A model generated the notes under the pieces. It was not told where the DNA came from. It ran no database searches and saw nothing but the letters and a program-made list of their open reading frames with translations. The position numbers were made by a program, and so were the translations under genes. A stretch of 64,000 nt of DNA from Escherichia phage ECML-4: the sequence record JX128257. One strand, given 5' to 3'. Position 1 is the first letter of the stretch, and every line of letters begins with the position of its first letter. Below, piece after piece: positions 6,817 through 8,528 of this stretch.

Positions 6817-6968
6817 TGATTTTAATCTTATGGTTTGTATTCACATTTCTGGCCATGGCCGACATCGGCAAGTATCACGTTCTCCCAAGCGACCTGACCG
6901 TCCTACTATACGGCATAGTTTCGTTTGTGCTGGGTTCCTTGCGCGCCCATATGAGGACTATATCATGA
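6817..6968 (+). CDS. small hydrophobic protein (50 aa)
   Basis: ATG 6817 after AAGGACTATATC; sequence MILILWFVFTFLAMADIG... predicted transmembrane. Confidence 0.4.
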
Positions 6969-7510
6969 GCACCCCAAAAACTCCTGTCCGTATCGCTGTT
7001 GAGCCTCTGCTGGTTGATGCTGAGAATGCTGCTGAGCAGTACGCGAACAAAGTCATCAAGAACATAATGGACGATCTGGCCTCCAACGACTGGGACGTCG
7101 AGAAGTGCGCTCCGTGGCCGTCTTCGGTTGGCGTCAAGTTTGGTGATCCAGATTACCAACGAATGAAATCAAAACACGCACTCTACCGTTCTTTGACCCA
7201 GGCAGTGAATCCTTCTTACACACCTGGGAAGCCGGATATTGTCAAAGCTGATCCTGAGCGCCATGCTCTGTTTGTCAAGGAAGCACGTCGAAACGCCGCG
7301 ATGCAGTATGAGTCTTTCATTTGTAAACTGGAAAACAAAATTGGTGGTCACAGCGCGGCTGTACTGAATGGTTCCCATGTATGGGGTTATTCAATCCTGA
7401 CCGTGACTACACCAGAGGGGATCGAGCGCTGGAAGACTCAGACGATTATCAATGTGTCCAAGCTGGGCAAACTCTTTAACCAATATCCAACGAGGAAGGT
7501 GAAGGAGTAA
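6965..7510 (+). CDS. hypothetical protein (181 aa)
   Basis: ATG 6965 after GAGGACTATATC (same initiation context as the preceding gene); ATGA overlap with upstream stop. Confidence 0.55.
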   Translation: MSTPKTPVRIAVEPLLVDAENAAEQYANKVIKNIMDDLASNDWDVEKCAPWPSSVGVKFGDPDYQRMKSKHALYRSLTQAVNPSYTPGKPDIVKADPERHALFVKEARRNAAMQYESFICKLENKIGGHSAAVLNGSHVWGYSILTVTTPEGIERWKTQTIINVSKLGKLFNQYPTRKVKE

Positions 7511-7521
7511 AATTAGAACAA

Positions 7522-7552
7522 CAAAGGGGCTTAATGCCCCTTTGTTTATTTC
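7522..7552. terminator. bidirectional rho-independent terminator between convergent genes
   Basis: CAAAGGGGC-TTAAT-GCCCCTTTG followed by TTTATTT; lies between the stops of 6965..7510 (+) and 7546..8004 (-). Confidence 0.6.
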
Positions 7553-8004
7553 CCATCCCAAAAGTCGTCTTCATCGTCTACTTCATCAAACGCAGAATCC
7601 AATTCTGCGTCAGAGTACTCTGGTAGACGACCATTCTGTTTCAGATATTCAATTTCGTCATCTTCCAATTGAAGATCCGTTGCTATAAACAGCGCTCCGG
7701 TCTCTTCATCATGTTCAATGCTATAAGACGTATATTCAGAACCCTGAACTGTAATGATGATAGATGTTGGATCTTCTGGATCCACGTGAGCTTCAAACGG
7801 GATACCGTCAATTGGGGCGTCTTCTAAGAATGTTGCAAGGGCTACGGCAGCGCGGACAACATCCGTACCCTGTACCGATGCATAAATTTCTTCTGCGCCC
7901 GTTTCCCCGCGCTCAAAGAATTCAATCGTAGTTCCGTCTTGAACCCCAGTCCAGATAGGCATATCTGCTGGTGTATCGGCTTCAAATAATTTTGAAATTG
8001 GCAT
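7546..8004 (-). CDS. highly acidic protein (152 aa)
   Basis: Very high D/E content throughout (e.g. C-terminal SAFDEVDDEDDFWDGK); last gene of a four-gene minus-strand operon. Confidence 0.6.
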   Translation of the reverse strand: MPISKLFEADTPADMPIWTGVQDGTTIEFFERGETGAEEIYASVQGTDVVRAAVALATFLEDAPIDGIPFEAHVDPEDPTSIIITVQGSEYTSYSIEHDEETGALFIATDLQLEDDEIEYLKQNGRLPEYSDAELDSAFDEVDDEDDFWDGK

Positions 8005-8039
8005 GTTCGTTTCCTCTATGGATAAACCTTATGGGATAT

Positions 8040-8489
8040 TTAGGCTTCTCTCTTCGCCAGCCCTGGTTTGAATACCACCATTTCTTCTACGTTATTGGCA
8101 CTCATAGAGGCTATGGAATCGAATCCTTTATTGATAAGTTCCTTCACATTATCGTGAATCTTACCAGGTTCTATCCCCAACTCACGCATTTTGTTTTCCC
8201 AAACAGAAACGTTATTAGAATCTATTACCAGAGTCTTCTTGGCCTTAACACGAAATGCCATGACAACAGGTTCACCAGATTGACGATAGCGAACGGCGTT
8301 TTCCGCGTAGATCTGCGCTTTTTCTGGATCCCCTGTCAGGTAAAATCCAGCACCCATCGTACCAGAGTCAGTCTGGCCAAATTTTTCAAAATCAAAGACG
8401 TCGAATTCAACATTCGACCCATGATATAAAACAATATCCGTAAAATCGGGCAATGTTGATTCACGATAGAATTCTAGGAAGGTTTTCAT
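8040..8489 (-). CDS. putative ADP-ribosyltransferase-like protein (H-Y-E type, tentative)
   Basis: Ordered motifs LYHGS ... GAGFYLTGD ... EEMVVF resemble the H-G-S / aromatic / catalytic-Glu pattern of PARP and diphtheria-toxin-like ARTs. Motif-level only. Confidence 0.3.
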   Translation of the reverse strand: MKTFLEFYRESTLPDFTDIVLYHGSNVEFDVFDFEKFGQTDSGTMGAGFYLTGDPEKAQIYAENAVRYRQSGEPVVMAFRVKAKKTLVIDSNNVSVWENKMRELGIEPGKIHDNVKELINKGFDSIASMSANNVEEMVVFKPGLAKREA

Positions 8490-8528
8490 GGATACCCCAC
8501 ACTTGCTGTATGGGGTATTTAGGAGGGA

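Follow-up and report, generated by a model that had tools for sequence, protein, structure and literature searches.

A hyper-acidic, late-type core protein found in Ackermannviridae virions and its possible passage through the phage head

The locus, its composition and its promoter-like motifs

The window, by which we mean the whole stretch of 64,000 nucleotides that was analysed (Escherichia phage ECML-4, sequence record JX128257), is, judged by sequence identity, the genome of a Kuttervirus (Ackermannviridae), a ViI-like and T4-related myovirus. Over positions 7000-10500 it shares 99.4% identity with Salmonella phage vB_Hercules_SET, and 97-98% with ViI (Vi01), CBA120-like and numerous further Kuttervirus genomes. 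Within this interval, a small open reading frame on the minus strand encodes a protein of extreme acidity, and the following genes and signals surround it.

7520..7546, no strand assigned: bidirectional hairpin terminator with an 11-bp stem (6 G-C pairs), common to the convergent gene 6830-7510
7546..8004, minus strand: coding sequence (152 codons and a stop) of the hyper-acidic protein
8012..8016, minus strand: ribosome-binding site GAGGA, 7 nt 5' of the ATG at 8002-8004
8036..8043, minus strand: late-promoter-like motif CTAAATAT, 32 nt 5' of the ATG, overlapping with the final codons of the gene before it
8040-8489, minus strand: ART-PolyVal/DUF3990 protein (ART-like protein below), 149 aa, N-terminus MKTFLEFYRE, adjoining the hyper-acidic gene upstream
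8515-8522: late-promoter-like motif CTAAATAC, before the ART-like gene
8529-9722, minus strand: PLP-dependent enzyme, orthologue of ViI gp226 (YP_004327553)
9792-10475, minus strand: 227-aa protein with no assigned function, starting MRNVTIW, upstream of the PLP gene

The protein holds 20 aspartates and 20 glutamates (26% of its residues) against three lysines and three arginines, which gives a net charge of about -34 at pH 7 as computed from composition, and among the 72 open reading frames of the window that reach 100 aa or more, none has a more acidic product. The original prediction of a hyper-acidic 152-aa protein is thus borne out. The check that had been proposed for it, a computation of pI and charge distribution, returned a pI of about 3.3 with a simple Henderson-Hasselbalch solver (the Biopython value of 4.05 is the floor of that routine) and a charge per residue of -0.19 in the predicted folded core and -0.42 in the last 26 residues, so that the charge, in terms of composition only, is denser at the C-terminus. 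All 30 homologues that we compared, at 33-97% identity, hold a net charge between -29 and -38, and the acidity therefore appears to be under selection.

The same prediction had placed the gene at the end of the operon. This stands in one respect, as it is the last gene on its strand before the strong terminator at 7520-7546, and the LIMEstone1 record also has a terminator annotated after the orthologous gene. It does not stand in another, as the gene has a late-promoter-like motif of its own at 8036-8043. The window holds 13 copies of the sequence CTAAATAY where 3.7 would be expected, a total of 13 being reached in none of 100 shuffles, and each of them lies in sense orientation 7-45 nt 5' of a gene start. 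The genes behind these copies are mostly structural (baseplate wedge, tail fibre, tailspikes, VriC, neck, sheath, prohead core and scaffold), and there is no copy in front of the PLP gene or the gene for the 227-aa protein. Since the hyper-acidic gene carries its own CTAAATAY motif and the PLP gene has none, the former is not merely the tail of an enzyme operon. The box CTAAATA(C/A/T)CCC also precedes the orthologous gene in LIMEstone1, Bue1, 3M and Kevin, which represent four other genera, and the LIMEstone1 authors, independently of our analysis, had marked a "putative late promoter" ahead of each of the two genes, hyper-acidic and ART-like. A scan for sigma-70 promoters showed nothing promoter-like directly in front of the hyper-acidic gene. 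The T4 late promoter TATAAATA was considered as the motif of the window and rejected, its single match being at chance level. Based on these motifs, we infer that the hyper-acidic gene is an independently promoted gene of late type.

The ViI orthologue of the PLP-dependent enzyme, gp226, is the O-serinyl-thymidine decarboxylase that completes the 5-NeOmdU hypermodification of phage DNA (PMC8989533). The proposed co-location with enzyme genes is correct as a description of the map, in that the hyper-acidic gene lies next to the 5-NeOmdU decarboxylase and ART-like genes; a functional tie is without support, because the ART-like gene is separately promoted and is missing from many relatives. It was found in 225 records, compared with 276 for the hyper-acidic gene, it is missing in all Miltonvirus and Nezavisimistyvirus genomes examined and absent at the hyper-acidic locus of Bue1, 3M and Kevin, and tblastn returned no match for it in Erwinia or Serratia phages. 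The upstream neighbour of the hyper-acidic gene in Bue1, 3M and Kevin encodes instead a 265-292-aa protein beginning MRNV, which, going by the shared start and not by an alignment, looks like a homologue of the 227-aa protein of the window.

These distributions bear directly on the idea that the hyper-acidic protein is dedicated to the ART-like protein encoded beside it, as its chaperone, inhibitor or immunity partner, by analogy with class I chaperones of type III secretion or with toxin-immunity pairs. The gene lies directly downstream of the ART-PolyVal gene, both products are packaged (see below), and the protein is small and acidic. Against this, 51 of the 276 records carry the hyper-acidic gene with no ART-like gene, the upstream neighbour is a different one in Miltonvirus and Nezavisimistyvirus, and each of the two genes has a separate promoter. 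We consider a partnership of this kind improbable, and the specific pairing of a toxin with its immunity protein was rejected since the gene pairing is not conserved (225 versus 276 records).

A narrow family with a predicted two-layer core

The sole match of the hyper-acidic protein in PHROGs is phrog_3852, over its full length, and the function label of that family is "unknown". Pfam gave no match at E <= 0.01 and nothing relevant at E <= 10 with nine members of the family, NCBIfam and PADLOC gave zero matches, and neither single-sequence nor profile searches of PDB sequences returned a match below E 0.16. When 1.84 billion cluster representatives were searched exhaustively with an HMM, only seven clusters matched the family, with no distant relatives and no non-phage context among them. 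By tblastn, the gene is present in 276 phage records, whose hosts are enterobacterial with the exception of three odd labels. It spans Kuttervirus, Taipeivirus, Agtrevirus and Limestonevirus and, more distantly, Nezavisimistyvirus and Miltonvirus; the orthologues include Vi01_184 (orf00227) of ViI, ORF174 of LIMEstone1 and gp115 of Sajous1. The major capsid protein of the window is found at 80% identity or more in 277 records, and the comparison of 276 with 277 therefore makes the hyper-acidic gene a core gene, near-universal in its clade. Taken together, the searches delineate a narrow orphan family that is specific to Ackermannviridae. In the literature on this family of phages, we came across no account of the function, location or processing of the protein, nor any DNA-mimic screens or transcriptomes.

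AlphaFold2 was run on the protein with 21 and then with 30 homologues, with mean pLDDT values of 75 and 79.8, respectively, and the five models of the second run all reached at least 71.6. The predictions divide the protein into a core and a tail, as listed here with the N-terminal peptide that is discussed further below.

7981..8004, minus strand: putative N-terminal propeptide MPISKLFE, codons 1-8, ending L-F-E^A (the caret marks the putative cut), which fits the T4 gp21 motif L/I-x-E
7627..7957, minus strand: predicted folded core, about residues 16-126, a beta3-alpha-beta4-alpha two-layer sandwich
7549..7626, minus strand: disordered acidic C-terminal tail, residues 127-152, with 12 D/E in 26 residues
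7558..7566, minus strand: D147-F148-W149 motif in the acidic tail, invariant among homologues

Most blocks of the core have pLDDT values of 80-95, the stretch of about 15 residues ahead of it is modelled less confidently, and the values fall below 50 from residue 131 in the tail. In fold comparisons, the core scored 5.3 against SOUL, 4.0-4.6 against several GyrI-like proteins (4.0 for SbmC/GyrI) and 4.1-4.6 against class I chaperones of type III secretion; these scores are in the twilight zone and extend over 57-74 residues, about half of the domain, and kinase N-lobes score equally. Phage tail terminators scored 4.0-4.5. The likeness to GyrI-like and SOUL (p22HBP) proteins and to class I chaperones is accordingly limited to twilight scores over half a domain, with no GyrI-like match in Pfam, and a Foldseek comparison with the viral models of BFVD brought back nothing but the orthologue itself. 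The protein thus has no clear relative by fold. Known DNA mimics were missing from the lists of fold matches. This is weak evidence, as to our knowledge DNA mimics have no fold in common, and for that reason a missing fold match is not decisive against a DNA mimic.

The acidic tail was also compared with that of SSB, whose acidic tip, D-D-D-I-P-F, is an acidic run with a hydrophobic residue at the very C-terminus. Mimicry of the SSB tail was rejected: between 0 and 9 residues follow the invariant D-F-W motif, and only P0027 ends at the tryptophan.

Presence in virions and the N-terminal peptide

The protein has been detected in phage particles. In CsCl-purified virions of Sajous1, the orthologue gp115 was identified with 31 spectra and the ART-like gp116 with 10 (PMC10892097 Table 6). 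In LIMEstone1, the orthologue ORF174 (16.62 kDa) and ORF173 (17.33 kDa) were both listed as "confirmed structural proteins" (PMC3296691), and the Vi01 record labels both Vi01_184 and the ART-like gene "phage associated protein". Its presence in virions is thus already in the literature, under the names "unknown structural protein" and "phage associated protein". Expressed as spectra per residue, with the caveat that spectral counts are a crude measure of abundance, gp115 of Sajous1 (0.20) falls among the portal (0.16), sheath (0.14) and tube (0.29) proteins and is about 15 times as high as either the scaffold (0.014) or SSB (0.014).

These values need to be weighed against the possibility that an abundant late cytoplasmic protein had merely co-purified with the particles. 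Low counts of SSB, ligase and rIIB do turn up in virion proteomes, and the detection in LIMEstone1 consists of one peptide with 12.5% coverage. Trypsin, however, cuts the Kuttervirus protein into only about three peptides whose size makes them usable, and the length of the LIMEstone1 peptide fits the sole 19-residue tryptic peptide of the orthologue. Detection was moreover independent in three phages, by the methods of two laboratories and in the ViI study, and the 15-fold excess over SSB or scaffold in Sajous1 speaks against carry-over. We see very little chance that co-purification accounts for these data; the protein does not behave as a trace contaminant. It is, then, a core, virion-borne and apparently abundant polyanion of late type.

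The original prediction had offered a DNA-mimic anti-restriction protein or a chaperone or decoy, and in its first form this would be a cytoplasmic mimic of the Ocr/ArdA type that titrates type I restriction enzymes or BREX. The resemblance to Ocr and ArdA, which is one of composition only, lies in an extreme and conserved negative charge on a small phage protein: net -34 over 152 aa is a density similar to that of known mimics. Ocr of T7 is an early cytoplasmic product and is not packaged, unlike the protein studied here, which has a conserved promoter motif of late and not early type and is found in virions. It gave no fold match to these mimics and matches neither Ocr nor ArdA nor any other Pfam family, and it is encoded by a core gene with none of the patchy distribution of an accessory function. 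Ocr-type mimics block BREX. The Taipeivirus relative phiHS2 stays moderately BREX-sensitive (bioRxiv 10.64898/2026.05.19.726188), and the phage DNA is already protected by the 5-NeOmdU hypermodification (PMC8989533). An Ocr/ArdA-type role is, in our judgement, highly improbable, and this part of the suggestion is unsupported given the late promoter, the virions and the core-gene status; its decoy or chaperone part comes closer to the evidence. The BREX sensitivity of phiHS2 is an indirect hint, which we have also counted against the reading as a host-defence decoy that is presented below. It may be added that pre-packaging could stand in for the early synthesis of a DNA mimic.

The main rival to the reading presented below is that of a purely structural or assembly component with no role in the infected cell, such as an accessory of the capsid interior or vertex, of the neck or of the tail, or an acidic partner that would neutralise the very basic prohead core protein and the internal proteins while the particle is assembled. 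A near-universal core gene with the late promoter of structural genes, whose product is spectrally about as abundant as portal and sheath, is in keeping with this, and the basic prohead core protein gp154 (pI 11.4) and gp214 (pI 8.5) could pair with a polyanion. Other observations point away from it. The positions that T4 gp67 and gp68 occupy between portal and protease are already taken by the syntenic gp153 and gp154, the gene is located outside the structural modules and beside that of a small packaged protein with a capsid-targeting peptide, and no solved phage structure contains a relative of the protein, as searched by PDB sequence. We regard a purely structural role as possible, if somewhat unlikely. 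Taken by itself, core-gene status is better suited to a role in structure or assembly than to accessory counter-defence.

The N-terminus of the protein gives an indication of how it could reach the particle. In T4, the prohead protease gp21 cleaves at the motif L/I-x-E, and the packaged ADP-ribosyltransferase Alt is cut at ITE-6 (PMC5694885). The T4 capsid-targeting sequence MKTYQEFIAE is removed by the prohead protease and is sufficient for loading into the head; the T4 internal proteins, which are cut after this sequence, are described as highly basic (PMC8442874). In Sajous1, N-termini resembling MKxFxEFxxE are found in gp116 (MKTFLEFYRE), gp215 (MKPFIEYFKE), gp216 (MKGFPDFLKE) and gp214 (MAIPSFLNFLEE), all of which were detected in virions, with 10, 32, 20 and 196 spectra, respectively. 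When the whole Sajous1 genome was searched with a regular expression for this targeting pattern, only gp116, gp214-216 and one other annotated start were returned. As read from these N-termini, the Ackermannviridae clearly employ T4-like capsid-targeting peptides.

The N-terminus of the hyper-acidic protein reads MPISKLFE^ADTP. It fails the regular expression that finds gp116 and gp214-216, being alike only in its last residues. In each of the 30 homologues, the motif [L/I/F]-x-E-[A/S] nevertheless has its end at residue 7-12, counted from the likely start; for comparison, [LI]xE[AS] ends within residues 4-12 in only 6 of the 529 first-ATG open reading frames of Sajous1. Residues S4, L6 and F7 are invariant or nearly so in the homologue alignment, and the Miltonvirus orthologue begins MLESKLFLKE^A, with the same ending as the gp216 propeptide MKGFPDFLKE^A. 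Only one other annotated start has LFE within its first 12 residues, that of the scaffold protein (MKPELQNLFE^G). Processing of the N-terminus is suggested by the conservation of S4, L6 and F7, by the motif in 30 of 30 homologues and by the FLKE^A ending in Miltonvirus, and we infer that the short propeptide is cut by a gp21-type protease at L-F-E8^A. A cut at E8 would leave the peptide ADTPADMPIWTGVQDGTTIEFFER, beginning at Ala9, and the uncut form would yield LFEADTPADMPIWTGVQDGTTIEFFER together with MPISK.

A possible head-internal, ejected polyanion

Based on these results, we suggest that this late-type core protein, present in the virion at appreciable copy number, is a head-internal protein that is ejected with the genome, a reading to which we assign a probability of roughly 45%. 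According to this model, the protein would enter the prohead core during assembly, where a T4-type prohead protease would remove the N-terminal peptide at L-F-E8^A. The mature polyanion, made of the alpha/beta core and the floppy D/E-rich tail with its D-F-W motif, would then exit the capsid with the DNA at infection and would act in the cell before any phage gene expression. There it may serve as a charged decoy for, or an inhibitor of, a host protein that binds DNA or takes part in defence, and the D-F-W tail would be the element that docks. The head-internal location, the cleavage, the ejection and the decoy activity are thus proposals, and the engagement of a basic DNA-binding host target through charge and D-F-W is purely conjectural.

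Among known systems, the hyper-acidic protein appears most like the T4 internal head proteins and the Alt-type packaged proteins, while lying off the strict targeting pattern and bearing the opposite charge. The T4 internal head proteins are IPI, IPII and IPIII, and IPI* blocks the GmrSD restriction enzyme. The similarities are that the protein is small, of late type, packaged in the virion of a T4-like myovirus and provided with a short N-terminal peptide that ends hydrophobic-x-Glu, a gp21-type site, and that small proteins nearby carry N-termini that nearly copy MKTYQEFIAE. The differences are equally clear: the T4 proteins are highly basic and this one has a net charge of -34, MPISKLFE is shorter and departs from MKxFxEFxxE, there is no similarity of sequence or fold, and the gene is core, in contrast to the non-essential T4 genes; the head interior and the ejection are, here, what we propose for it. 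With Alt, a virion-delivered effector, it shares a very short propeptide ending I/L-x-E, and its neighbour gene encodes an ADP-ribosyltransferase-like packaged protein. Unlike Alt, which is a protein of about 75 kDa present in about 40 copies, it has no enzymatic domain.

Besides the core-gene status and the BREX sensitivity of phiHS2, further observations count against the head-internal reading. The N-terminus is outside the strict targeting pattern of gp116 and gp214-216, and a polyanion packed beside DNA would be unusual, the T4 internal proteins being highly basic (PMC8442874).

A more specific version of the model would be that of a pre-packaged DNA mimic or polyanionic decoy, loaded at tens of copies or more per capsid, processed by the protease and injected with the hypermodified genome. 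Before any phage transcription, such a decoy would blind a nucleoid protein or a host defence aimed at DNA, docking through the invariant D-F-W tail, and, if true, would combine the strategy of Ocr with the delivery route of the T4 internal proteins. In P1, the Dar proteins (DarA, DarB, Hdf and others) are anti-restriction proteins that are packaged in the head and injected with the DNA. The concept of capsid-loaded counter-defence proteins is what the two would share, for the hyper-acidic protein as a proposal; there is no homology between them, and the Dar proteins are large. We hold this specific version to be distinctly unlikely, and nothing so far shows an unusual mechanism for the protein.

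The interest of the protein lies partly in the phages that carry it. Ackermannviridae are in wide use, and are also being proposed, as biocontrol and therapy agents directed at Salmonella, E. coli O157, Klebsiella and Dickeya, and in these therapy-relevant phages the hyper-acidic protein, a core component with no assigned function, is apparently abundant in the virion. A purely structural role would make the finding an ordinary one. Ejection with the DNA would make the protein a new, acidic type of internal protein and a candidate first-line counter-defence factor beside the 5-NeOmdU hypermodification and the packaged ART-like protein. Should the decoy reading prove right, the protein would count as a real variant among the packaged accessory proteins of T4-like phages. 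Independently of the hyper-acidic protein, a T4-like capsid-targeting peptide could serve to load foreign proteins into Ackermannviridae heads. Elsewhere in the window, a 65-aa open reading frame at 12470-12667 on the minus strand begins MKTFGEFLAE.

Proteins with T4-like targeting peptides

The gene for the hyper-acidic virion protein (7546-8004, minus strand) has as its neighbour a gene whose product begins MKTFLEFYRE, a close likeness to MKTYQEFIAE, the N-terminal peptide that loads proteins into the T4 head and is removed by the prohead protease. Similar peptides were found in the following proteins:

8040-8489, minus strand: ART-PolyVal/DUF3990 protein, 149 aa, with its own late motif at 8515-8522
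12470-12667, minus strand: 65-aa ORF within the tRNA cluster, N-terminus MKTFGEFLAE
Sajous1 MW021757.1, 151641-154897 (loci L009/L010), outside the window: gp214, gp215 and gp216

The ART-PolyVal/DUF3990 protein has been detected in the virions of ViI, LIMEstone1 and Sajous1, and it resembles a packaged ADP-ribosyltransferase of small size, similar to Alt; it is also matched by the PADLOC candidate defence families PDC-M13A/B. In the 65-aa ORF, 7 of the 10 residues are identical to the T4 peptide (8 with the conservative Tyr-to-Phe change), and CTAAATAA lies upstream. This ORF is likely to encode a small internal head protein; among the annotated starts of Sajous1, no counterpart was found. 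T4-like targeting peptides also open Sajous1 gp214, gp215 and gp216, all abundant in virions (196 spectra for the 795-aa gp214). The source paper took the three for a tail operon of the ferritin or 'Ferrojan horse' type (PMC10892097), but their N-termini suggest that they are internal head proteins instead.

The CTAAATAY motif

CTAAATAY occurs at 13 sites in the window, against 3.7 expected (for example at 16219, 20081, 23309, 25844, 31066, 37582, 41832 and 48529), with every copy sense-oriented and close upstream of a gene, and often in the longer form CTAAATACCCCAT. In this phage family it appears to form the core of the late promoter. The T4 box TATAAATA was not enriched in the window.

Surrounding genes and the ViI record

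Further upstream of the acidic gene lie:

8529-9722, minus strand: PLP-dependent enzyme, start possibly further upstream
9792-10475, minus strand: 227-aa protein with a sub-threshold match to NDUS4, a complex I subunit
10547-11065, minus strand: Sf6-type tail needle knob domain (PF16532, E 8e-28)
11075-11308, minus strand: 77-aa protein preceding the knob gene
11600-12863, minus strand: five tRNA genes (Ile-GAT, Ser-GCT, Tyr-GTA, Asn-GTT, Met-CAT)

The PLP-dependent enzyme is orthologous to ViI gp226, which serves the 5-NeOmdU hypermodification pathway as its O-serinyl-thymidine decarboxylase. In related records the annotated form has 424 aa and is longer than the first-ATG ORF given above. 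The 227-aa protein, labelled 'ETC complex I subunit' in other records, starts with MRNV. In Miltonvirus and Nezavisimistyvirus, the gene immediately upstream of the acidic one encodes a larger protein that also starts with MRNV and is probably a homologue of the 227-aa protein. At the tRNA locus, Sajous1 and Guerrero differ from the window in their annotated set (Leu, Ser, Asn, Trp, Met).

In the ViI orthologue of the acidic protein, Vi01_184 (P0003), residues 41-62 are scrambled relative to all relatives and the flanks on both sides align perfectly, the pattern that two mutually compensating frameshift errors in NC_015296.1 would typically leave.

The 77-aa protein has been detected in virions. 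The Sf6-type knob domain is found here in a contractile-tailed phage, where the protein presumably forms the tip of the central spike.
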